A stretch of DNA of 64,000 bases, from assembly GCF_058153355.1 (NCBI RefSeq), contig NZ_CM177019.1. One strand, written 5' to 3'. Position numbers and translations under genes: made by a program. Numbering within the stretch: position 1 is the first letter of the stretch; each line of letters begins with the position of its first letter. Shown one piece after another: positions 2,848 through 61,442 of the stretch. Below the pieces are notes generated by a model that was given only the letters and a program-made list of their open reading frames with translations, had not been told where the DNA came from and searched no databases.

Positions 2848-4005
2848 GTGACTTATTTCCGTATTAATCCTGTTCTGGCGCTGCTGCTGTTGCTGACGGC
2901 AATCGCAGCGGCGCTGCCGTTTATCAGTTACGCGCCTAATCGTTTAGTCTCGGGTGAGGGGCGTCATCTCTGGCAGCTGTGGCCGCAAACGATCTGGATG
3001 CTGGTGGGCGTTGGTTGCGCCTGGCTGACCGCCTGTTTTATTCCCGGTAAAAAAGGCAGCATTTTTGCACTCATTCTGGCGCAATTCGTCTTCATATTGC
3101 TGGTGTGGGGCGCGGGAAAGGCGGCGACACAACTGGCGCAAAATGGCAGTGCGCTGGCGCGTACCAGCCTCGGCAGTGGTTTCTGGCTGGCTGCGGCGCT
3201 GGCATTGCTGGCCTGTAGCGATGCCATCCGCCGAATCTCCACGCATCCGCTGTGGCGCTGGTTGTTGCATATGCAGATTGCCATTATTCCGCTGTGGTTG
3301 CTGTACTCCGGTACGCTTAACGATCTTTCGCTAATGAAAGAATACGCCAACCGTCAGGATGTGTTTAATGACGCGCTGGCGCAACATCTGACGTTGCTGT
3401 TTGGTGCGGTGCTGCCTGCGTTAGTGATTGGTGTGCCGCTGGGCGTCTGGTGCTACTTTTCCACTGCGCGGCAGGGGGCGATTTTTTCTCTGCTGAATGT
3501 CATTCAGACCGTGCCTTCGGTGGCGCTCTTTGGCCTGTTGATTGCGCCGCTTGCCGCGCTGGTTACGGCCTTTCCGTGGCTGGGTAAGCTCGGCATAGCA
3601 GGAACCGGAATGACACCCGCACTGATTGCGCTGGTGCTCTATGCCTTGCTGCCGCTGGTGCGCGGTGTGGTAGTCGGCTTGAACCAGATCCCGCACGATG
3701 TGCTGGAGAGCGCCACAGCGATGGGCTTGAACGGAGCACAGCGATTCCTGCATGTGCAGCTACCGCTGGCGTTACCGGTATTTCTGCGCAGCCTGCGGGT
3801 GGTGATGGTGCAAACCGTCGGCATGGCGGTGATTGCGGCATTAATCGGCGCAGGTGGTTTTGGTGCGCTGGTTTTCCAGGGGCTGCTAAGCAGTGCCATT
3901 GATTTAGTGTTGCTGGGGGTGATCCCGGTAATCGTACTGGCGGTGCTGATCGACGCACTGTTCGATCTGGTTATCGCACTGCTGAAGGTGAAACGTAATG
4001 ATTGA
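2848..4005 (+). CDS. yehY: ABC transporter permease
   Basis: 385-aa polytopic hydrophobic ORF. It lies 6 nt after osmF and overlaps the yehX start by 8 nt. Confidence 0.9.
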
Positions 4006-4924
4006 ATTTAGCCATGTCAGCAAACTGTTCGGCACACAAAAAGCCGTTAACGATCTCAATCTCAATTTTCAGGAAGGGAGTTTTTCGGTGCTGATTGGTA
4101 CATCAGGCTCCGGTAAATCCACCACATTGAAAATGATCAACCGTCTGGTAGAGCATGACAGCGGAGTGATCCGCTTTGCCGGAGAAGAAATTCGCTCGCT
4201 GCCAGTGCTGGAGTTACGCCGCCGGATGGGCTATGCCATTCAATCTATTGGCCTGTTTCCCCACTGGAGCGTGGCGCAAAACATTGCTACTGTGCCGCAA
4301 TTACAAAAATGGTCGCGGGCGCGGATCGACGACCGTATCGACGAATTAATGGCGCTACTGGGGCTGGAGCCGAATTTGCGTGAGCGTTATCCGCATCAGC
4401 TTTCCGGCGGTCAGCAGCAACGTGTGGGAGTGGCCCGCGCACTGGCTGCCGATCCGCAAGTCTTACTGATGGATGAACCCTTTGGCGCACTGGACCCGGT
4501 AACGCGCGGCGCGTTGCAACAAGAGATGACGCGTATTCACCGTTTGTTAGGGCGCACCATTGTGCTGGTCACTCATGATATTGATGAGGCGCTACGGCTG
4601 GCAGAACATCTGGTATTGATGGATCACGGTGAAGTGGTGCAGCAGGGCAATCCGCTGACGATGCTGACTCGTCCGGCGAATGAATTTGTCCGCCAGTTTT
4701 TTGGCCGTAGTGAACTGGGTGTGCGCCTGCTTTCGTTACGTAGCGTGGCGGATTATGTGCGCCGCGAAGAGCGGGCTGAAGGTGAGGCGCTGGCAGAAGA
4801 AATGACGCTACGCGATGCGCTCTCCCTGTTTGTCGCGCGGGGATGCGAAGTGCTGCCGGTGGTGAACACGCAGGGCCAGCCTTGCGGTACGCTGCATTTT
4901 CAGGATCTGCTGGTGGAGGCGTAA
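3998..4924 (+). CDS. yehX: ABC transporter ATP-binding protein
   Basis: Contains Walker [10 protein letters not shown], the ABC signature LSGGQQQRV and Walker [12 protein letters not shown]. Confidence 0.92.
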
Positions 4925-4928
4925 GCGT

Positions 4929-5660
4929 ATGAAGATGTTGCGCGATCCGCTGTTCTGGCTCATTGCTCTGTTTGTGGCGCTGATTTTCTGGCTGCCTTAC
5001 AGCCAGCCGCTGTTTTCTGCCTTGTTCCCACAACTGCCACGACCCGTTTATCAGCAAGAAAGTTTTGCCGTCCTGGCGCTGGCCCATTTCTGGCTGGTGG
5101 GAATTTCGAGTTTGTTTGCTGTGATCATTGGCGTTGGTGCCGGAATTGCCGTCACTCGACCGTGGGGTGCGGAATTTCGCCCACTGGTAGAAACTATCGC
5201 TGCCGTTGGGCAGACTTTTCCGCCCGTCGCGGTGCTGGCGATTGCTGTTCCGGTGATGGGGTTTGGTCTGCAACCGGCGATTATCGCCTTGATCCTGTAC
5301 GGTGTGCTGCCCGTCCTGCAGGCGACACTTGCCGGGCTGGGATCGATTGATGCCAGCGTGACAGAAGTTGCTAAAGGTATGGGAATGAGCCGTGGTCAGC
5401 AACTGCGTAAGGTCGAGCTACCGCTGGCGGCTCCGGTGATTCTGGCGGGCGTGCGAACTTCGGTGATTATCAACATTGGTACGGCGACGATCGCCTCAAC
5501 GGTAGGGGCCAGCACGCTGGGTACGCCCATCATCATCGGGCTTAGCGGATTTAATACCGCGTATGTGATCCAGGGGGCGTTACTGGTGGCACTGGCGGCG
5601 ATCATCGCAGACCGCCTGTTTGAAAGGCTGGTGCAGGCGCTTAGCCAGCACGCAAAATAA
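4929..5660 (+). CDS. yehW: ABC transporter permease
   Basis: 243-aa hydrophobic ORF that starts 4 nt after the yehX stop. Confidence 0.9.
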
Positions 5661-5748
5661 AGGTATAACCTGCGAGCATGACGCCACCAATTCCGCCTAA
5701 CGCCATAAACAGGAACAGGGCGATGACCCCAATTTTAGCTATGCGCAT
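5641..5748 (-). CDS. yohO: 35-aa small membrane protein YohO
   Basis: Manual translation of the minus strand gives [35 protein letters not shown]. This ORF is below the cutoff of the ORF track. A GGAG lies upstream (aaggagtgcattATG). The sequence matches my memory of YohO. Its 3' end overlaps the yehW 3' end by 20 nt. Confidence 0.75.
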
Positions 5749-5807
5749 AATGCACTCCTTATGTTAACGAAAGGATTGTACAGTAAAGCGCATTTGTTAA
5801 CGAATCA

Positions 5808-6539
5808 TTAAATGCCGAGTGGGAAAATATCATGGCCTTGTTCCTGCCAACTGGTAAGTTGCTGCTGTTGGGCAGAGGTTCGATTTTCACCGCACCACAC
5901 CAGCAATGTACGGCCTTCGAACAGTTCAGGGCGTAGTTGATTGAGCGAGTGGGCGAGGACATCAATGCGCCAGCCCTGTTGACTGGCAATCCAGCCCTCT
6001 AGCCACAGACGGGTGGTATCCTGAATATTCCAGCCAACCACCAGCGCATCTTTACCCTGTTTTTTACGTGCCGAAGCCAGACAAATGGCGATGTAGTTGA
6101 TCAGTACGCCGTCGAGGATCGCCAGCAGCGCCTGGAGAGTCGGTTGTTGGCACTGAAGTCGTCGGCGCAGAGGAATAAACAGGTGCGTGGTGAGTGTCTG
6201 GGCGGGGTAATCCTGACCGCGCTCTTTGATCCACGTTCGCAGGCTATGCAGATTGCCGCTTTGCAGGTAAGTCAGTAATGTTTCTTGCTGATCGCGCCAG
6301 CCGTTCTGCACATCAACATTTTCATTACTGAGCAGCATTTTAACTTTGCTGACCTGCACGCCGTTGTCGATCCAGCGTTTGATCTCGCGGATCCGGTCAA
6401 TATCGGCATCATTGAACAGCCGATGACCGCCGTCTGTCCGTTGCGGTTTCAGCAATCCGTAACGCCTCTGCCACGCGCGTAACGTGACAGGGTTAATATC
6501 ACAAAGCAACGCCACTTCACCAATTGTGTAAAGCGCCAT
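5808..6539 (-). CDS. mlrA: MerR-family transcriptional activator of csgD/curli
   Basis: 243 aa with an N-terminal MerR HTH (MALYTIGEVALLCDINPVTLRAWQRRYGLL). Its position between yehW and btsS agrees with K-12. Confidence 0.9.
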   Translation of the reverse strand: MALYTIGEVALLCDINPVTLRAWQRRYGLLKPQRTDGGHRLFNDADIDRIREIKRWIDNGVQVSKVKMLLSNENVDVQNGWRDQQETLLTYLQSGNLHSLRTWIKERGQDYPAQTLTTHLFIPLRRRLQCQQPTLQALLAILDGVLINYIAICLASARKKQGKDALVVGWNIQDTTRLWLEGWIASQQGWRIDVLAHSLNQLRPELFEGRTLLVWCGENRTSAQQQQLTSWQEQGHDIFPLGI

Positions 6540-9208: not shown

Positions 9209-9679
9209 ATGCTAAGTAACGATATTCTGCGCAGCGTGCGCTACATTTTGAAAGCCAATAATAACGACTTGGTGCGCATTCTGGCGCTGGGTAATGTCGA
9301 AGCCACTGCGGAACAGATCGCCGTCTGGCTACGCAAAGAAGACGAAGAAGGGTTTCAGCGTTGTCCGGACATTGTTCTGTCTTCATTCCTGAATGGCCTG
9401 ATTTATGAAAAACGTGGCAAGGATGAGTCAGCTCCGGCACTGGAGCCGGAACGTCGCATTAATAACAACATCGTGCTGAAAAAATTACGTATCGCGTTTT
9501 CGCTGAAAACTGATGATATTCTGGCGATCCTTACCGAACAGCAGTTCCGCGTTTCGATGCCGGAAATTACGGCGATGATGCGTGCACCGGATCATAAAAA
9601 CTTTCGTGAATGCGGCGATCAATTCATGCGTTATTTTCTGCGTGGGCTGGCAGCGCGCCAGCATGTGAAGAAAAGCTAA
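9209..9679 (+). CDS. yehS: DUF1456-family protein YehS
   Basis: The ATG at 9209 gives MLSNDILRSVRYILK…, 156 aa, with an internally duplicated domain. The longer track ORF (from 9152) overlaps the btsR end. Confidence 0.8.
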   Translation: MLSNDILRSVRYILKANNNDLVRILALGNVEATAEQIAVWLRKEDEEGFQRCPDIVLSSFLNGLIYEKRGKDESAPALEPERRINNNIVLKKLRIAFSLKTDDILAILTEQQFRVSMPEITAMMRAPDHKNFRECGDQFMRYFLRGLAARQHVKKS

Positions 9680-9688
9680 GACGGGTAT

Positions 9689-9715
9689 GGCGGCCATGCG
9701 AAGAACATGGCCGCC
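9689..9715. terminator. GC-rich hairpin between convergent yehS and yehR
   Basis: ggcggccatg-cgaagaa-catggccgcc forms a 10-bp perfect stem. There is no clear T-tract on either strand. Confidence 0.4.
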
Positions 9716-9721
9716 GACAGA

Positions 9722-10183
9722 TTATTTCACTTCTTTAAAACCAGCGGCTTTCATCACCAGTTCCATTTGCGCCATAGTGATACCTTTTTTGGCATCTTCA
9801 GCAGAAACGTTGATACCTGAAATACCCTGCAGGGCTTTAAAATCAACTTTTTCCATATCGATAGTCACGTTTTCCTGAGCATAAGTATCGGTAAAGGTTA
9901 ATTTTTCTTCAACGCCAGGGATGTTTTTATATTTGGCACTTAACGGCTCAAGTGTCTTGGCAGCATCTTCTTTGGTGGTTGCACCAATGGAAGCAAATTG
10001 AATTTTGGTTTCAGAAGATTGCTTAAGAACCTTGTCACCTTTGTAGACATAGGTAATAGCAATTTCAGTACCGTTCAGATTAGCGCTAAATTTCTTCGAT
10101 TCTTCTTTGTCACCGCAGCCAGCAAGAGAGAAAACCAGAACAGATGCAACAACAAGGGAAAACAGCTTATTGAAAGCCTTCAT
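9722..10183 (-). CDS. yehR: lipoprotein YehR (DUF1307)
   Basis: MKAFNKLFSLVVASVLVFSLAGC carries a lipobox (LAGC). The start at 10183 is preferred over the track start at 10195. Confidence 0.85.
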   Translation of the reverse strand: MKAFNKLFSLVVASVLVFSLAGCGDKEESKKFSANLNGTEIAITYVYKGDKVLKQSSETKIQFASIGATTKEDAAKTLEPLSAKYKNIPGVEEKLTFTDTYAQENVTIDMEKVDFKALQGISGINVSAEDAKKGITMAQMELVMKAAGFKEVK

Positions 10184-10314
10184 GTAAAACTCCATTTTAT
10201 TTAATCAAGGAACTGGTGACCACACCAGGGGCCATATAGGATATGCCTAATACCTTGGCGTGAGCAGTCCGGAACTGGAGTAGAACTCTTTGTAAAAAGC
10301 ACTATTTGTCCTTG

Positions 10315-12306
10315 TTACTCAAGCAAGGTTAATAATTGTTCGCAAAGCAAAACGCAGTTATTCATTGCTTCTCCCCGTGCCTCGCCTTCTGTATTACGAA
10401 ATTGTCCCAACACATGTGCCAGCCGATAAAAACCCATCGCGGTGAGTTCATTGACCAGCAACTCTGACTGACTAATGGCACTCTGTTCCTGATAGCGCCA
10501 GCCATTATGGAGCAGTTGAATAAGCAACGCCTGACAGCGCATCAGTAACTGATGAGTGGTAGACGGTACAGGCAGAACGCTGGCAGAAGGTAGCGGTGCC
10601 ACAGGCGCAGTTTCTGCGTCCAGCGCCCAGGCGCGGGTTTTTGTCATCATCACCCGTGGTTCCAGTGTCAATTGCCCCTCTACAAAACTGACAAAGCCAG
10701 AAACCAGACTCACGGGGTCGTCTGTTTGTTGTAACAGAGCTGCCATGCGTTCAACGGCAAAAGGAGAACAGGCAGATGCCGGAAGGGATAACGTCAGCAC
10801 ATTATCGTCACCTTCGCCACTGATTACCTGCGCATCCAGTGTCTGCCGACTGCTGTCCCAACCGAGTGAAATGCACTCTTCTACTGGCAGAATAAATAAG
10901 TTATCGACCTGGTTAAGCTGTCGTATGGCGGCTGGCGGACGTTGGCGTAAATATTCCCGCAAAGCCACAATGCCCGGCTGGCGCAGTGGTGCGCTCAACA
11001 TTTGCCAGGCATCAGGCGACAGCGGAACAACACTGCTTAAGCGGTTGCGGGTAGCTAATAGCAACTCGCCATCAGCACTGCGTTTTGCTGCTTGTGAAAC
11101 AATTTGCCCACCCGCCAGCGCGCCAGCCTGAAAACTAAACAGCCGCCGTTTTGCCGCTGGAGAGTTATCCTGTTCACTTCTCGGCCAACTGCGCGAAAGA
11201 TGCAAAATACTGCCGGTGTCGGGATCGGTGAACCAGATGCGTAAACCATACCGCTCATTATCCTGCCAGCAACGCATACCTAGTGACACCAGCCGCAAAT
11301 GATCAAGCTTTGCTTCGCCAGCAATGCCTGCGCCAATGACCGTGCGCCACGGTATGGGCGGTACTTCACCGACACTGTCACGTCGCGCCATCTCTTGTGC
11401 ACTGTTCAAGCGACTGGTTAACGCCGCAAGCTGGCACAAGCATTTTCCGGCATGATAGTAGCTGGCGCGGGCGTGGAAGGCATCAACGCTTGCCCGTAGC
11501 TGTCGTAGTGATTCACTTACCCAACGCCAGTTGCAGCGTTCCGCCGCTTGCTGCGCGCGGCTGAAAGCGGCCTCGTAGTGGATTGACGGTTGGCTGATGC
11601 CTCCCAGCCATAATGCCTGACTTAATTGCTGAACATATTGACGACATGCTTTACCTTCGTCGCTGGAAAACGGATCGTCAGATGATGTGACGTGTTCACT
11701 GTGCATCTGCCAGATCAAATGAGTAAATTCTGCTTGTTGATTTTTGGCCTCGACGAAGGCCTGCACAGCCAGTGCTACGTGTTCACACAGCGTTCCTTCA
11801 ATACAATCACAACGGGCGAAACGAATGCTGCTGCGGGAATAAAAACGCACATCGCTCATCGGTAAGCGGGCAGAGGGAATTTCGCCCGGCGTGCAGAACA
11901 ACTCAATGGTGATGCCTTTAGCGACCAGCGCCTGCGCGCGTTTGCGCGTGGTATTGGGCAGGGTAGCCAGTTCTTCCTGCCAGATTGCCGGATCCCACTC
12001 TTCTTCTTTTTCCGTAGGCTGGGCGGTGGCACAAAGTCGTTGATAACTTAACACCAGCATCACGCGATGACGGCACATGCCGCTGGCCCCGCAGCTGCAT
12101 TGAGCCTCTTTCAGTGCCTGACTGTTCGCCAGCCGGGTACGGACACCGTCACTGAACGTGGCGATTAAAGCGCCGTTCTCATGGCAGATTTCCGGGACAT
12201 TGCCATTTTCCAGTTCCTTAAGGCTGCGCTTCACAAAACCAGCATTGCTTAACGCCGTCAGGGCCTGCGGTGTCAGTTCTAATAATTCCGGACGTAGTGA
12301 ATTCAT
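10315..12306 (-). CDS. yehQ: SWIM zinc-finger protein YehQ with two CxC…CxH motifs
   Basis: The ATG at 12306 overlaps the yehP TGA (ATGA). The SWIM signatures are CSCGASGMCRH and CDCIEGTLCEH. The track ORF extends upstream to 12411 inside yehP, and I treat that as a spurious extension. Confidence 0.8.
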   Translation of the reverse strand: MNSLRPELLELTPQALTALSNAGFVKRSLKELENGNVPEICHENGALIATFSDGVRTRLANSQALKEAQCSCGASGMCRHRVMLVLSYQRLCATAQPTEKEEEWDPAIWQEELATLPNTTRKRAQALVAKGITIELFCTPGEIPSARLPMSDVRFYSRSSIRFARCDCIEGTLCEHVALAVQAFVEAKNQQAEFTHLIWQMHSEHVTSSDDPFSSDEGKACRQYVQQLSQALWLGGISQPSIHYEAAFSRAQQAAERCNWRWVSESLRQLRASVDAFHARASYYHAGKCLCQLAALTSRLNSAQEMARRDSVGEVPPIPWRTVIGAGIAGEAKLDHLRLVSLGMRCWQDNERYGLRIWFTDPDTGSILHLSRSWPRSEQDNSPAAKRRLFSFQAGALAGGQIVSQAAKRSADGELLLATRNRLSSVVPLSPDAWQMLSAPLRQPGIVALREYLRQRPPAAIRQLNQVDNLFILPVEECISLGWDSSRQTLDAQVISGEGDDNVLTLSLPASACSPFAVERMAALLQQTDDPVSLVSGFVSFVEGQLTLEPRVMMTKTRAWALDAETAPVAPLPSASVLPVPSTTHQLLMRCQALLIQLLHNGWRYQEQSAISQSELLVNELTAMGFYRLAHVLGQFRNTEGEARGEAMNNCVLLCEQLLTLLE

Positions 12307-13439
12307 GACTGAAGATTCTCCGCAAGCCAGGTAGCCAGTTCGCCCGGCGTCATTGCGGCTATTTGTGCGCCGACATTTACCAGCGCCTGGGCTGTATCGC
12401 GGTCGTAGCAAGGTGTTGCGGTGCTATCGAGCGCTGCCAGTCCCAGCACTTTGATGCCGCTCTGGACACACTTTTTCACCTGATGCGTCAGCAATGATGA
12501 TGAACCCCCTTCATAAAAATCGCTCACGAGGATGATGACGCTTTTCGCTGGTTGTTCAATAAGTTGCCGACCATATTCCACGGCGCTGGCGATATTGGTC
12601 CCGCCATCCAGCTGTACTTTCATTAATAACTCTACCGGATCGGCAACGTCTGCCGTGAGATCGACGACGCTTGTGTCAAAAGCGACCAGATGGGTGCGGA
12701 TACCGGGTAACTGCCATAAACAGGCCGCCATCACCGCTGAGTGGATCACCGAATCGACCATTGAGCCGCTTTGATCAACCAGTAACACCAGCTGCCATTG
12801 TTCGCTATGGCGTTTAATTCGGCTGTTAAAGCGGGGGGATTCGATATACAACTTGCCGTGTTGCGGGTGCCAGTGTTGCAGGTTGGCGCGCAGAGTACTT
12901 TTGAAATCGAAATTACGTGCCAGTGGAATAAATGAGCGGCGACGGCGATCGCGGACACCTGAAAAAGCCTGACGAACTTCCTTTGCCAGTCGCGCCATAA
13001 TTTCTTCAACAACCTGGCGCACTATCCGGCGGGCGGCAGCCAGCACTTCGGGATTCATCAGATGTTTGGTGTGCAAAACGGCGCGTAGCAGGCTTTCAGA
13101 AGGCTGCATACGCTCCAGCACGTCGAGATTCGTCACCACATCTTCAATGCCGTAGCGCAGTACGGCATCGCTTTCCAGCCGCTCAATCACCCGTTGCGGA
13201 AATAGTGTGTGAATACTGTTGATCCACTCAGGGGTGGTGAGATTTGAGTCACCTAATCCACCGGAGCGTTCACCACGCTGGAGCCGTTCAGGATCGCGCC
13301 CATACAGCCACTCCAGCGCGTGGTCTATCTGCCGGGCATTGTCATCCAGCCCACAAAGCGTCGTTTCTGCCGCTTCGCCAAGAATTAATCGCCAGCGTTG
13401 TAGCTCACGAGTGGTCAGAAGATCGTTCAGTTCAGACAT
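12303..13439 (-). CDS. yehP: von Willebrand factor A (VWA) domain protein YehP
   Basis: The ATG at 13439 (MSELNDLLTTREL…) overlaps the yehM end by 8 nt. MIDAS-like residues are LLVDQSGSM … GGTNIASA … LVSDFYEG. Length is 378 aa. Confidence 0.85.
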   Translation of the reverse strand: MSELNDLLTTRELQRWRLILGEAAETTLCGLDDNARQIDHALEWLYGRDPERLQRGERSGGLGDSNLTTPEWINSIHTLFPQRVIERLESDAVLRYGIEDVVTNLDVLERMQPSESLLRAVLHTKHLMNPEVLAAARRIVRQVVEEIMARLAKEVRQAFSGVRDRRRRSFIPLARNFDFKSTLRANLQHWHPQHGKLYIESPRFNSRIKRHSEQWQLVLLVDQSGSMVDSVIHSAVMAACLWQLPGIRTHLVAFDTSVVDLTADVADPVELLMKVQLDGGTNIASAVEYGRQLIEQPAKSVIILVSDFYEGGSSSLLTHQVKKCVQSGIKVLGLAALDSTATPCYDRDTAQALVNVGAQIAAMTPGELATWLAENLQS

Positions 13440-56778: not shown

Positions 56779-57419
56779 CCGGAACCATTGGCCTGCTGGC
56801 CATTCAGTGCGCTGTCGCGCTGGGAGCAAAGAGTGTGACGGCTATCGACATTAGCTCAGAAAAACTGGCACTGGCAAAATCTTTCGGTGCGATGCAAACA
56901 TTTAACAGCCTTGAAATGAGCGCGCCGCAAATGCAGCCCGTTTTACGCGAGCTGCGCTTTAATCAGCTTATCCTCGAGACGGCTGGCGTCCCGCAAACCG
57001 TCGAACTGGCGGTAGAGATTGCCGGGCCTCATGCCCAGCTGGCGCTGGTGGGCACGTTGCATCAGGATCTGCATTTAACATCGACAACGTTTGGCAAAAT
57101 ATTACGTAAAGAGCTGACGGTTATCGGCAGTTGGATGAACTACTCCAGCCCTTGGCCGGGGCAGGAGTGGGAAACGGCGAGCCGGTTGCTGACAGAACGT
57201 AAGTTAAGCCTGGAGCCATTAATCGCTCACCGTGGAAGCTTTGAAAGCTTCGCCCAGGCGGTGCGTGACATCGCTCGTAATGCTATGCCGGGCAAAGTGT
57301 TGCTTATTCCCTGAAACCGCGGGCCAGCGTGATGCTGGCCCGGTATTGTGCAAAACAGATCATTCACCAATGGTCCCCCTTCGTTTACACTAGCCACAAT
57401 TGAATATGGGTAAATGACG

Positions 57420-58193
57420 ATGAATTCATTCGAGCGAAGGAATAAGATCATCCAATTAGTGAATGAACAGGGAACCGTGCTTGTTCAGGATCTGGCGGGA
57501 GTATTTGCTGCCTCGGAAGCGACAATCCGTGCCGATTTGCGCTTTCTCGAACAAAAAGGCGTGGTTACGCGCTTTCATGGCGGTGCGGCGAAAATAATGT
57601 CCGGTAATAATGAAACCGAGACCCAGGAAGTCGGGTTTAAAGAGCGATTTCAGCTCGCCAGCGCGCCGAAAAACAGAATAGCGCAGGCGGCAGTCAAAAT
57701 GATCCACGAAGGGATGACCGTTATTCTCGACAGCGGAAGTACGACAATGCTTATCGCCGAAGGTTTAATGACCGCCAAAAATATCACGGTGATTACCAAC
57801 AGTCTCCCGGCGGCGTTTGCCCTTTCCGAAAATAAAGACATTACTCTGGTCGTCTGTGGTGGCACGGTCCGCCATAAAACGCGCTCGATGCATGGCTCCA
57901 TTGCCGAGCGTTCATTGCAGGATATTAATGCCGATTTAATGTTTGTCGGTGCTGATGGTATTGATGCGGTTAATGGTATTACGACCTTTAATGAAGGTTA
58001 TTCGATTAGCGGTGCGATGGTCACAGCCGCTAATAAAGTGATTGCCGTTCTCGATTCATCGAAATTTAACCGTCGCGGTTTTAATCAGGTACTGCCAATC
58101 GAAAAAATTGACATTATTATTACTGATGATGCCGTGTCAGAGGTGGATAAACTGGCATTGCAGAAAACACGGGTGAAATTAATTACGGTGTAG
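57420..58193 (+). CDS. gatR: DeoR-family repressor of the gat operon, apparently intact
   Basis: MNSFERRNKIIQLVNEQGTVLVQDLA… has a DeoR HTH and a sugar-binding domain. An alternative ATG lies at 57414. The reading frame is uninterrupted. Confidence 0.88.
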   Translation: MNSFERRNKIIQLVNEQGTVLVQDLAGVFAASEATIRADLRFLEQKGVVTRFHGGAAKIMSGNNETETQEVGFKERFQLASAPKNRIAQAAVKMIHEGMTVILDSGSTTMLIAEGLMTAKNITVITNSLPAAFALSENKDITLVVCGGTVRHKTRSMHGSIAERSLQDINADLMFVGADGIDAVNGITTFNEGYSISGAMVTAANKVIAVLDSSKFNRRGFNQVLPIEKIDIIITDDAVSEVDKLALQKTRVKLITV

Positions 58194-58204
58194 CATTGTT
58201 CTTT

Positions 58205-58237
58205 ATGCCGGATAAGGTGTGTACACCGAATCCGGCA
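58205..58237. repeat. single REP element
   Basis: atgccggataaggtgtgtacaccgaatccggca. Confidence 0.8.
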
Positions 58238-58274
58238 ACACTGATACTCCCTGAATTAAGAAAGGGAAATTTGA

Positions 58275-59174
58275 TTAACGCAATAATGGACAATCCGGTG
58301 GTAATCGACAGCGCAATGCTGCCGGAAGTATTTCAATATGGAAGTTTTGTCCACTCAACGGTTCGCCATCAAGATTAAAGGTAATTTCGTGTGGCGCTTG
58401 TATATCGAACCACGCCGAAGCACCTTCGATAATATTCGGGTTATCTTCGTCAGATTTTAAGGTTGATACGAGAGCCGGAAGAATTTCATCGCCGGTGAAA
58501 ATGCGTAGTTGCAGCAAGCCGTCGTTAATTAATGCGTTCGGGCACAATTGCTGACCGCCACCTGCCTGACGGCCGTTACCAATACCAATGACTAGTGCGT
58601 CACCTTGCCAGTGAAAGTTTTCACCGCGGATTTCACAACGGTCCGGTTGCAGTGTATCCATGCGCATTAAGCCGTGAATGATGTAAGAGACGCCACCCAG
58701 CGCGGCTTTTAATTTTTCCGGCGTTTCTGTGGTAATACGTGTCCCAAACCCACCCGTTGCCATATTAATAAAACAGGTTTTTTTGTTGACCTGCGCCATA
58801 TCAATCGCAATAGCATCACCAGCAATTGCTAGTTTCAGCGCCTTATCCAGTGCCTCAGGTATACCCACGCTGGTCGCGAAATCGTTCGCTGTACCTAGTG
58901 GCAAAATCCCCAGCGCGGGTATGTCATCGCCCTCACACTGAATCAGCGCCGAGGAAACTTCATTAATAGTGCCATCGCCGCCACCGGCAATTACCGTTGC
59001 GACGCCCAGCTTCCGGGCCTCTTCTACAAATCGGGCGGCATCGCCTTTCTCCCAGGTGACCCGCACATGGATCGTCATTCCTTCCTCGCGCAACAGCATA
59101 ATTGCTTCGCGCAAGGGTTGATTGTCAGTACTTTTGCCGTTAAGAATCAGTAAGCTGGCGGGAAATTCTGCCAT
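58275..59174 (-). CDS. yegS: lipid kinase YegS (DAG-kinase-like fold)
   Basis: 299 aa beginning [15 protein letters not shown]…, with a GGDGT motif ([11 protein letters not shown]). Confidence 0.9.
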
Positions 59175-59259
59175 AATCGTATGCCTTTATGATTGGTCTG
59201 TAGATAGTGTAGAGCAGAAAAGAAAAGGCGGAGTCAGAACAGGATGAAAATCGGAGGAT

Positions 59260-59475
59260 AAAAAATCAGTTCAAGGATGGGGAATTCAGTGGTTACCAGT
59301 AAGGGGGGCAACGGTACACTCGGTTTTTATCGGCATAAATGATCACTGAAAGCACTTAAGCATTATTTTACTGTGGATTCAGCGTGGCAGCGAACATTAA
59401 CGGTAGTCAGGGACAAACTTCAAAAGAGCATATGCATCATATTCAACAAAGCAATGGCATCCTCAATGTACGATT
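59260..59475 (-). mobile_element. degenerate P2-family attachment core, P'-arm and integrase 3'-end remnant
   Basis: aaaaaatcagttcaaggatggggaatt (59260-59286) matches the P2 core at 60323-60349 in 18 of 27 positions by manual count. The next ~110 bp align to the arm between the P2 core and int. The minus strand then encodes …YIEDAIALLNMMHMLF*, compared with the P2 Int C-terminus …EYLQDAISLNPL…. Confidence 0.6.
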
Positions 59476-59656
59476 CCAATTATATTAAATAATTCCTATG
59501 AGGTTATCTGTGATAGGCCTCCATGTCTGTATTTCCTACTTATGTAGGAAATTCTGCACAAAACATTTATTATAATCCTATTCAATAATGACAATGATGT
59601 CATTATTATATTTCAACACTAGAGAGTGTCGTTGGTGTTTAATGGGGGAAGGTGAG

Positions 59657-59974
59657 ATGAAAAAGACAGTTGCTATATCATTAATTAGTGTTTTTCTTAT
59701 GTCTGGTTGTGCTGTGCATAATGATGAGACAAGTATCGGTAAATTCGGTCTTGCCTATAAAAGTAATATCCAGCGTAAACTCGATAACCAATACTACACT
59801 GAAGCCGAAGCATCTTTAGCCAGGGGCAGAATATCTGGTGCGGAAAATATAGTGAAAAATGATGCAGCTAATTTCTGTGTTACTCAGGGCAAAAAAATGC
59901 AGATAGTTAACCTGAAGACTGAAGGGGCAGGATTACATGGCGTCGCGCGTCTGACATTCAAATGTGGAGAGTGA
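59657..59974 (+). CDS. yegR: lipoprotein YegR, 105 aa
   Basis: The ATG at 59657 follows GGAAGGTGAG. MKKTVAISLISVFLMSGCAVHND carries a lipobox (MSGC). The track ORF is 5'-extended. Confidence 0.75.
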   Translation: MKKTVAISLISVFLMSGCAVHNDETSIGKFGLAYKSNIQRKLDNQYYTEAEASLARGRISGAENIVKNDAANFCVTQGKKMQIVNLKTEGAGLHGVARLTFKCGE

Positions 59975-60322
59975 GAATAGATTCAAGACTACCATGGACA
60001 CATCCATTTTTATCTCTGATAAGGTATTCTTCAACACCATTATTGAATGTGAGTAATAATGACAAGCAGATAGATGAAACTACAGCAGAATTTTTATTTT
60101 ATGCGGCTATCAGAAAATGATGGCATAAATATTCCTATGCTTTAGCTTCATTTTTTGTAAGCGTCAAACATGCGCGTTCTGGCTGTGCGTAGCCGGACCC
60201 TGTGCGAGCACGATGCCGTTAAGTGAAAGGCATCGTGCTATGAAGGGGAATTCTATCGATATGGTCAATGGAAGGAGGTAACCAGGTATGAATCCTTCCT
60301 TCTGTTTCATTGAATTACGCAT

Positions 60323-60349
60323 AAAAAATAAGCCCGTGTAAGGGAGATT
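60323..60349. other. P2 attachment-site core (prophage/host junction on the int side)
   Basis: aaaaaataagcccgtgtaagggagatt is the 27-nt P2 att core as I remember it. It lies 80 nt from the int stop. Confidence 0.8.
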
Positions 60350-60428
60350 TAGGGTGTCACCAGTAGGGGCTTTCAACGGTACAATGCGGGTTTGAGCGGC
60401 ATAAATTACCACTGAAAGCCCTTAAACG

Positions 60429-61442
60429 TTACTCTACTGTGGACACTGTGTGGACACTCTCGGCCTCAGTACCACCTCTTAGCGGATTAAGAGAAATGGC
60501 GTCCTGAAGGTACTCTGGCGCAAAGTGAGCGTAAACCATAGTTTGCTCAATCCGCGTGTGACCTAGTATCCGTTGTAGCGTGATAATACTTCCTCCATTA
60601 ATCATGAAATGAGTGGCAAAGCTGTGCCTTAGTGCATGTGTGGCTTGCCCCATTGGCAAATCCGGTTTTATTGCTTTCATTGTTCGTCTGAAGCGAGGGT
60701 AATCAGCATCAGGGAATAAAAAACCTCGTTTGTTATCCGCGATCATTTTGGCAACAGCCTCTGAGATCGGGACGGTGCGTGGTTTGTTTGTTTTCGTTTT
60801 AACAAACGTGACGCGGTTATGGATGATATTTTCTGCTTTCAAACGAGCTGCTTCTCCCCAACGTGCTCCAGTACTCAGGCAAAGAATCGCAATCTTTTTA
60901 TTGTCGCCGTCAAGAGCAGCAAGCAGTAAGGCAATTTCTTCCTGCGTGAGATAGCCTGTGTCTGGTTTTTCCTCCTTAAGCCTTTTTGTCCCTCTGATAG
61001 GGTGCTCACCAAAGAATAACTCCGCTTCAATCAGGGCTGTAAACATGCCGCTAATACATGTTAAATCACGATTGATACTCGAAGGTTTAATACCCTGACT
61101 TCTTCGGGTGGCGCAGTACTGGCTGATAAGCGATTTCGTAATTTGAAATGCGCATGGGTCATTCGTTATTTTTGTGAAGATTTCAATTTTTCCAAGATTA
61201 GATTTCCCATGCTCTTCGTGTTTACCCTTTAAATCCCACCAGATCTGTGTCAGCTCCGACAGACGTCGCTTGTCTGTTGGTTTTGATAGCCATTCTTTAT
61301 TGTGGTGGTTGTACAACGTGTATTTCTCGAAAGCGACAGCTTCGCTTTTCTTATCAAACTTCCTACGGATGCGTTTTCCATTACGTCCAGTAGGGCGGAT
61401 GTCCACTTCATATCGACCATCATCGAGTTTTTTGATTGCCAT
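60429..61442 (-). CDS. int: P2 integrase (tyrosine recombinase)
   Basis: 337 aa beginning MAIKKLDDGRYEVDIRPTGRNGKR…. The catalytic residue contexts are TGARWGE, HALRHSF and MVYAHF. Confidence 0.95.
   Translation of the reverse strand: MAIKKLDDGRYEVDIRPTGRNGKRIRRKFDKKSEAVAFEKYTLYNHHNKEWLSKPTDKRRLSELTQIWWDLKGKHEEHGKSNLGKIEIFTKITNDPCAFQITKSLISQYCATRRSQGIKPSSINRDLTCISGMFTALIEAELFFGEHPIRGTKRLKEEKPDTGYLTQEEIALLLAALDGDNKKIAILCLSTGARWGEAARLKAENIIHNRVTFVKTKTNKPRTVPISEAVAKMIADNKRGFLFPDADYPRFRRTMKAIKPDLPMGQATHALRHSFATHFMINGGSIITLQRILGHTRIEQTMVYAHFAPEYLQDAISLNPLRGGTEAESVHTVSTVE
60438..60457. promoter_or_regulatory. tandem tgtggacac repeats, candidate Int arm-type binding sites
   Basis: tgtggacac occurs at 60438-60446 and 60449-60457 (11-bp phasing), inside the 3' end of int next to the att arm. 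Confidence 0.5.

Follow-up and report, generated by a model that had tools for sequence, protein, structure and literature searches.

Phage P2 integrates by site-specific recombination between attP and attB, in which Int, IHF and Cox take part. The cyaR terminator is the preferred P2 site locI and also the place where E. coli K-12 bears a P2 remnant, and both the K-12 sequence and the annotation of the cryptic prophage PR-X point there. In lysogens, the canonical P2 attL comprises the core, an int-side arm with two repeats of the tgTGGaCa type, which is the consensus of the Int arm sites (PMC3448106), and an int gene reading towards the core. PR-X consists of ogrK and yegZ/D' beside cyaR and lies immediately right of the yegR block in K-12; its annotated interval, 2167183–2167811 in NC_000913.3, excludes yegR. 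Cargo of intact P2-like phages has been described as well, and cdtABC occupies a hot spot between gene A and cos/Q in fiAA91-ss and in the O157:H43 T22 prophage (cdt-V).

The DNA analysed here, called the window, is a stretch of 64,000 nucleotides (contig NZ_CM177019.1, assembly GCF_058153355.1), and the gat–yegS–yegR region of E. coli forms its right end (Table 1). With a probability that we put at about 0.85, the ~1.06 kb at 59260–60322 is an attL'–yegR–attR' remnant that encloses yegR. Like PR-X, this scar would be a P2-type remnant at the same site, left by integration and then internal deletion. PR-X differs from it in being a younger and separate event with a recognisable D' and ogr, whereas the scar is older, retains a 35-codon int tail as the only phage gene trace, occurs in essentially all E. 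coli and has yegR within it. The order in K-12 is old attR' arm, truncated core, D', ogrK, P arm, core and cyaR, and thus K-12 carries two stacked generations of P2 remnants. The window has no D'/ogrK fragment after the core, and an intact P2 left end is found where K-12 has PR-X. A literature search, with the classic P2 attachment-site papers outside its scope, returned no paper placing yegR in a P2 remnant.

Table 1. Features of the scar and its flanks, in window coordinates.
Feature	Position	Strand	Remarks
IS4-family transposase, 448 aa	55353–56699	minus	gatD fragment follows directly after the IS4-family element
gatD C-terminal fragment	56835–57314		profile positions 189–344 of 347 kept
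gatR	57414–58193
yegS, lipid kinase	58275–59174	minus	host gene on the left flank of the scar; NCBIfam lipid kinase YegS, E=7.5e-148
Ancestral host spacer	59175–59259		homologous to the cyaR–yegS spacer of species lacking yegR
core'	59260–59286		probable decayed attL copy of the 27-bp P2 core / cyaR terminator; 18/27 positions as in the P2 core
Decayed P' (int-side) arm	59287–59391		aligned to 60350–60444; two Int arm-type repeats, 59372–59379 and 59383–59390
Pseudogenised integrase 3' end	59363–59470	minus	35 codons and stop; in-frame stop at 59420–59422
Perfect palindrome, 9+4+9	59531–59552		ATTTCCTAC-TTAT-GTAGGAAAT, ~105 bp upstream of yegR
yegR, predicted lipoprotein, 105 aa	59657–59974	plus	signal peptide with Cys lipobox; sole intact gene in the scar
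Scar interior 3' of yegR	59975–60255		no P2 similarity; includes hairpin 60207–60239
Decayed P (ogr-side) arm	60256–60322		attR' arm of the old prophage; local alignment score 53
Exact P2 core, 27 bp	60323–60349		AAAAAATAAGCCCGTGTAAGGGAGATT; exact match, once in the window
Left end of resident P2-type prophage	60350–61442	minus	P' arm 60350–60428 and integrase gene 60429–61442

The decayed left junction

On the host side of the scar, gatD is cut by the IS4 element in the window and intact in the close relatives E19025 and M160133, and yegS bears the name annotated for the same gene in related genomes. The gatR–yegS intergenic region gave a sub-threshold Rfam match to naRNA4 at 58206–58267 (35.5 bits against a gathering score of 59.5, E=0.0014), which is probably a REP-type repeat.

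The left end of the scar begins with a 27-mer, AAAAAATCAGTTCAAGGATGGGGAATT, which agrees with the P2 core AAAAAATAAGCCCGTGTAAGGGAGATT at 18 of 27 positions in each haplotype, the number that the sequence-only reading had counted by hand. This core' lies 86 bp from the yegS ATG, which is the place of the cyaR terminator in outgroups, and when three deep haplotypes were taken together, the positions matched by at least one of them rose to 24/27 for the P2 core and 25/27 for the cryptic-clade terminator, an agreement that would suit a decayed copy but is short of identity. The sequence that follows core' had been proposed to resemble the arm at the left junction of the resident P2 prophage ~1.06 kb away, and both the distance and the resemblance were upheld. 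A gapped local alignment of 59258–59378 with 60321–60444 at that junction scored 91, and the controls reached 18.1 ± 2.1 (maximum 29) in 300 shuffles and 18.1 ± 2.3 (maximum 27) in 300 real segments of the window. The score is thus ~35 standard deviations above both shuffled and real-sequence controls, and the similarity is significant by the kind of alignment that had been suggested as a check. By blastn, the remnant and the P2 left junction are 75% identical over 121 bp. The P2 arm repeats, TGTGGACAC at 60438 and 60449, have an 11-bp spacing, and the same spacing is kept between the remnant repeats TGTGGATTC at 59372 and CGTGGCAGC at 59383.

The minus strand next to core' carries the remnant of an integrase gene that reads towards the core. 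The frame from 59470 down to 59363 translates as YIEDAIALLNMMHMLF*SLSLTTVNVRCHAESTVK*, where the end of P2 Int is YLQDAISLNPLRGGTEAESVHTVSTVE*, and both conserved ends of the tail (YxxDAIxL and AES..TVx-stop) share one frame. The tail proposed earlier is therefore present with its conserved ends in frame, but its length is ~36 codons with an in-frame stop and not ~16 codons. The tail motif YIEDAIAL is collinear with YLQDAISL of P2, and the pattern [YH][LIMF].[DE]A[IVL].L occurred twice in the six-frame translation of the 64-kb window, in the P2 int and in the remnant. A 22-bp DNA match in the tail scored 24, which 0/500 shuffles reached (14.8 ± 2.0), and the protein similarity to P2 Int was not significant alone, as 40/1000 shuffles reached its score. 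Weak by itself, the tail is nevertheless collinear with the arm. Upstream of 59470, the integrase frame has stops and no similarity to Int, and thus 59470 marks a deletion edge.

The tail had also been expected to reveal an integrase distinct from that of P2, and in this it gave no support. The tail was scored against 111 full-length P2 Int family representatives; the highest score, 35, compares with a null maximum of 32 ± 3.7, so that it points to no particular integrase lineage, and none of the family members was significantly closer to the tail than P2 Int itself. A closer donor phage was sought by blastn in 50,697 phage records, where the sole match was a prophage record containing host flank, and by tblastn of the 37-aa tail, which gave no match. 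The degenerate arm pattern was met in 114 stretches of IMG/VR; the 80 that were compared were all modern P2 arms and none was closer to the remnant.

The remnant is found at the P2 attachment site itself: relative to yegS, core' stands exactly where outgroups have the cyaR terminator, and beside it 35 codons are left from the end of an integrase gene, with one internal stop. The stretch 59260–59475 is best explained as the left junction (attL'), now decayed, of an earlier P2-type prophage, with a core copy, an int-side arm and an int tail. The window also holds a live example of the canonical P2 attL at 60323–61442. Unlike the canonical site, the remnant has a core that is 33% diverged, degenerate repeats, an int reduced to a tail containing a stop and no prophage behind it, and judging from this state attL' is probably inactive as a recombination site.

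The ancestral site, the right end and the haplotypes

The outgroup sample consisted of yegS neighbourhoods from 79 species genomes, with E. fergusonii and cryptic clade I not among them. The order yegQ–cyaR–(~80 bp)–yegS, without yegR, was found in E. whittamii, Escherichia sp. E1V33, Klebsiella, Enterobacter, Kluyvera, Atlantibacter and C. amalonaticus, and cyaR followed by yegS without yegR was also the order in most other Enterobacteriaceae sampled. In a multiple alignment, the spacer from the yegS ATG to the core was continuous with that of E. whittamii, E1V33, E. ruysiae and other genera; core' aligned column for column on the outgroup cyaR terminator, which is the P2 core, and by blastn the homology with the outgroups ended at 59269–59270 of the window. 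Therefore, core' is probably the yegS-side duplicate, and the DNA between both cores is inserted. The suggestion that yegR is not ancestral here was borne out, as close outgroups have cyaR directly beside yegS and the block lies exactly between the decayed and the live core. In E. ruysiae, an intact P2-like prophage stands directly against yegS without yegR, an arrangement presumed to be the starting state.

The sequence-only reading had placed yegR between two left junctions, and this had to be given up because what adjoins the present core on the left is a right (ogr-side) arm in a decayed state. The 65 bp at 60256–60320 scored 53 against the ogr–core arm of the complete prophage in E19025, compared with a background of 16.3 ± 2.2, and blastn with the ogr-side arm of P2 gave 77% identity over 75 bp. 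In M160133, whose site is unoccupied, an identical right arm is directly followed by the core and cyaR, which means that the resident phage is not the source of this arm. A comparison of the entire interval from yegS to the core with a complete P2 prophage gave matches at the two ends alone, collinear with the prophage ends, and blastn and tblastx against that prophage found no traces of P2 genes in the scar interior. A ~170-bp segment of the interior (59979–60150) is missing from K-12 and ETEC. The long left arm is carried by the unoccupied strains M160133, CU42ET-1 and R32_14_1F. Since both ends are homologous to P2 ends and are found in unoccupied strains too, 59260–60322 reads as an earlier P2-type prophage stripped of its backbone. 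The "empty" P2 attachment site of E. coli is, in these terms, the right end of an earlier prophage. The proposal that P2-type phages used the site at least twice stands by virtue of the two ends and the resident P2; its further claim, that the phage and integrase were different ones, gained no support, the core and the type of arm repeat being the same.

The exact core at 60323–60349 serves two elements, as it closes the old scar on the right and is at the same time the attL core of the resident prophage, and in unoccupied strains it forms the 3' terminator of cyaR (RF00112, 99.8 bits). The resident integrase has the Pfam domains Int_N and Phage_integrase and is followed by repressor C and cox. 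As the 99.6% identical APEC strain E19025 has a whole P2-like element of 35 kb, with a right end of the order ogr–arm–core–cyaR–yegQ, the P2 left end in the window belongs to a prophage of the complete type. Because the resident P2 integrated beside the old right arm, the junction at 60256–60430 is attP-like, its P arm being decayed, its core exact and its P' arm intact. Its arm repeats are degenerate (TATGGTCA and GAAGGAGG, compared with TGTGGTCA and TGTGGACG in P2), and with such repeats the junction is probably inert. The E19025 prophage also carries, between gene A and the portal gene and beyond the end of the window (9526–12592 of the extracted locus), a SIR2-family anti-phage protein and an ATP-binding protein, at the hot spot where other P2-like phages have their cdt cargo, and an ISEc12 copy is inserted in one of its virion morphogenesis genes.

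The distribution of yegR had been proposed as a test of its link to prophage occupancy. With 59175–60430 as the query, the yegR block was matched in 5423/5426 complete E. coli genomes whether P2 was resident or not, and the test would have to be recast; in every haplotype examined, yegR lies inside the scar. The long left arm was found in 22/5426 complete genomes, some with unoccupied sites. The common haplotype (K-12, Nissle and ETEC-2264) lacks ~70 bp of the left arm (roughly 59300–59385) and ~20 bp of the right arm, and its similarity to P2 scored 26 against 17 ± 2.3 with a shuffle maximum of 27. This nearness to noise probably explains why the origin of the block went unnoticed, and the origin is visible in the window because its rare haplotype keeps ~70 bp more of the left arm.

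The segment from the 3' part of gatR through yegS to yegR is 99.4% identical between the window and M160133, and compared with K-12 it is ~93% identical in yegS and ~87% in the yegR block. A third and deeper haplotype, that of strain SCPM-O-B-8794, has the same scar boundaries. All three deep haplotypes thus have yegR already inside the same boundaries, and their core' versions share two derived changes, a pattern that fits one ancient insertion followed by independent decay. The dS of yegR between haplotypes is 0.2–0.47, and therefore much of the ~25% divergence of the arm from modern P2 could be decay in place. In the neighbouring host DNA, 57716–59298 (the 3' part of gatR and yegS) is ~93.4% identical to K-12 and gatR 5' of 57718 is 98.9% identical. 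The dS of yegS is 0.35 between the window and K-12 and ~0.8–1.0 to SCPM-O-B-8794 and E. whittamii; the yegS of SCPM-O-B-8794 is nearer to that of E. whittamii (dS 0.32), yet this strain has yegR. The pattern of yegS divergence suggests that Escherichia lineages recombined long ago in this region.

Other P2-type remnants at the cyaR–yegS junction

In E. albertii NBRC 107761, cdtA, cdtB and cdtC (Pfam CDtoxinA, Exo_endo_phos and CDtoxinA, respectively) lie between cyaR and yegS with P2 arm stubs and no phage backbone (2545–5915 of the extracted locus). The genes are flanked on one side by a core copy (23/27) and a 91-bp int-side arm (84%) and on the other by a 75-bp ogr-side arm (89%), and a 41-bp piece of the islet matches the P2 region near cos/Q. 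Since cdtABC is internal in intact phages, this islet arose by deletions on both sides of an internal cargo. Its order, which runs from yegS through a core copy with an int-side arm, the cargo, and an ogr-side arm with a core to cyaR, is that of the yegR scar, and in both the backbone is deleted. The islet differs from the scar in being far less decayed and in having a cargo documented in intact P2-like phages, and it is an independent parallel at the same site.

Two further genera have remnants here. The P2 remnant of C. amalonaticus S646 (3894–6000 of its locus) measures 2.2 kb and represents an intermediate state of decay; it comprises a fragment of the int 3' end, an ORF of 245 aa, a segment that matches a late-gene region of P2, and an ogr-like stretch. 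In S. enterica subsp. diarizonae, a 96-bp stub of the P2 ogr-side arm (74%) lies next to cyaR (locus positions 3077–6000), and the insert encodes a 358-aa SseK/NleB-like ORF and a 138-aa chaperone-like ORF, identities that were judged by eye.

History of the scar and the origin of yegR

In the history that we propose, a P2-type phage would have integrated by Int-mediated site-specific recombination into the cyaR terminator at a time when cyaR lay ~85 bp from yegS. The integration would have duplicated the 27-bp core; the yegS-side copy would then have lost its function and drifted, and the far-end copy, which rebuilds the cyaR terminator, would have stayed exact and therefore still usable as an attachment site. 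Deletions would have removed the backbone and left attL', an AT-rich interior of ~0.8 kb with yegR, and the decayed ogr-side arm at 60256–60322. Later, an intact P2-type phage would have integrated into the regenerated core at 60323–60349 in the strain of the window. Secondary copying of the arms from resident prophages was also considered and is not matched by the data, as the long arm is present in unoccupied strains and is ~25% diverged.

The family of yegR, PF27694, is almost confined to E. coli. The yegR block has a GC content of 33–42% compared with ~50% in its flanks, and the dN/dS of yegR between deep haplotypes is about 0.08–0.17, which indicates that the gene is maintained by purifying selection. 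The stems of the palindrome upstream of yegR are kept in all haplotypes and the loop varies, for example in SCPM-O-B-8794. The palindrome presumably matches the EvgA half-site TTCYTACA and is a probable EvgA box as far as its sequence tells. EvgA is reported to bind the yegR promoter (PMC8147483), and in glucose-limited chemostats knocking out yegR produced no phenotype (PMC3708739). Rare and distant YegR homologues are found at unrelated loci, one in an IS-rich island of Enterobacter sp. BIDMC 29 and another at an enterobacterial chromosomal site beside a gene of the uracil-DNA glycosylase family (PF03167), and their contexts share no flanks and contain neither a P2 core nor arms.

A search of INPHARED for an intact phage with yegR returned only a prophage record containing host flank and a K-12-like fragment. 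In all of the IMG/VR matches yegR stood as the outermost gene of a predicted P2 prophage, which amounts to an overcalled boundary. Dozens of the predicted P2 prophage contigs in IMG/VR (loci L209–L287) begin exactly at the start codon of yegR, and automated callers thus routinely count yegR as the first "phage" gene. This boundary is an artefact that happens to fall inside the older scar.

As the interior has no P2 trace, the status of yegR as cargo rests on its position and on analogy. With phage morons and domesticated cargo, yegR shares AT-richness, a narrow distribution, its own regulation (EvgA), a place inside prophage boundaries, purifying selection and retention after the decay of the phage; it differs from morons in that its carriage by an intact phage of the family was not found in INPHARED or IMG/VR. 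By this likeness, we lean towards yegR having been cargo of the old phage that was kept because it was useful. Of the earlier proposal that yegR came in as cargo from a phage border, the position inside a phage scar holds, but "border" is probably wrong given that the cdt cargo is internal, and by the same analogy we think that yegR would have come from an internal hot spot.

The strongest competitor to a cargo origin, doubtful in our judgement but to be taken seriously, accepts the scar as P2-type and has yegR inserted later, by illegitimate recombination or another mobile element, or arising de novo there. The failure to find an intact P2-family phage with a yegR-like gene in INPHARED or IMG/VR, the non-phage contexts of the distant homologues and the interior without P2 similarity are all what it would lead one to expect. 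Against it, the same-site remnant of E. albertii keeps cdtABC, which intact P2-like phages (fiAA91-ss and the T22 prophage) carry as cargo, the surroundings of yegR show no evident IS ends or target duplications, and the three deep haplotypes all have the gene within the same boundaries.

The long left arm could have a separate source, namely a second P2-like phage that had used the degenerate core' as a secondary site and has since been deleted, leaving a fresh arm and an int tail. P2 does use secondary sites of partial core identity, the long arm is rare (22/5426 genomes), and the divergence from K-12 extends over the whole gatR–yegS–yegR segment (~93% identity in yegS and ~87% in the yegR block). 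We nevertheless consider this very unlikely, because in the common haplotype both the beginning of the arm and the complete int-tail region are still there, aligned on either side of a simple gap of ~70 bp, so that a deletion explains the short arm, and because the long arm differs by ~25% from each of the modern P2-type arms compared in IMG/VR (80 loci, all P2-like) and is therefore not recent. That the whole resemblance is due to chance, or to intergenic host DNA that is simply conserved and never was part of a phage, is hardly credible: a core match of only 18/27 and a tail whose protein similarity is not significant would suit it, but the arm alignment is ~35 standard deviations above the controls, the opposite end gives an independent match to the other P2 arm in the correct orientation, and the outgroups lack the whole block. 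The reading that we retain is therefore that of an old P2-type prophage reduced to its two ends around yegR.

A wider reading, which goes well beyond the scar and which we regard as improbable at present, makes the cyaR terminator a recurrent dock, where P2-family phages deliver cargo to the cyaR–yegS junction and deletion of the backbone leaves cargo-only islets with arm stubs. The cargoes may be yegR in E. coli, cdtABC in E. albertii, an SseK-like effector in Salmonella and an ORF of unknown nature in Citrobacter. In its boldest form, Int and Cox of a P2 lysogen might recombine the decayed attL' with attR, and if this were true, such recombination would cut out yegR along with the prophage or mobilise it; alternatively, the arm stubs might affect the expression of yegS or yegR.

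The yegR scar is a well-supported new case of prophage decay with what is probably retained cargo, by a mechanism that is not new. It offers an origin, inside a nearly erased P2-type prophage, for yegR, an uncharacterised K-12 gene and member of the EvgA acid-response regulon. It also reveals an ancient scar in essentially all E. coli that reference annotation does not recognise, PR-X stopping short of yegR. Together with the remnants in E. albertii, Citrobacter and Salmonella and with K-12, where PR-X and the yegR scar lie side by side, it makes up a graded series of decay at one attachment site, which is useful for prophage-boundary callers, many of which wrongly put yegR in the resident P2, and for studies of how phage cargo is domesticated.
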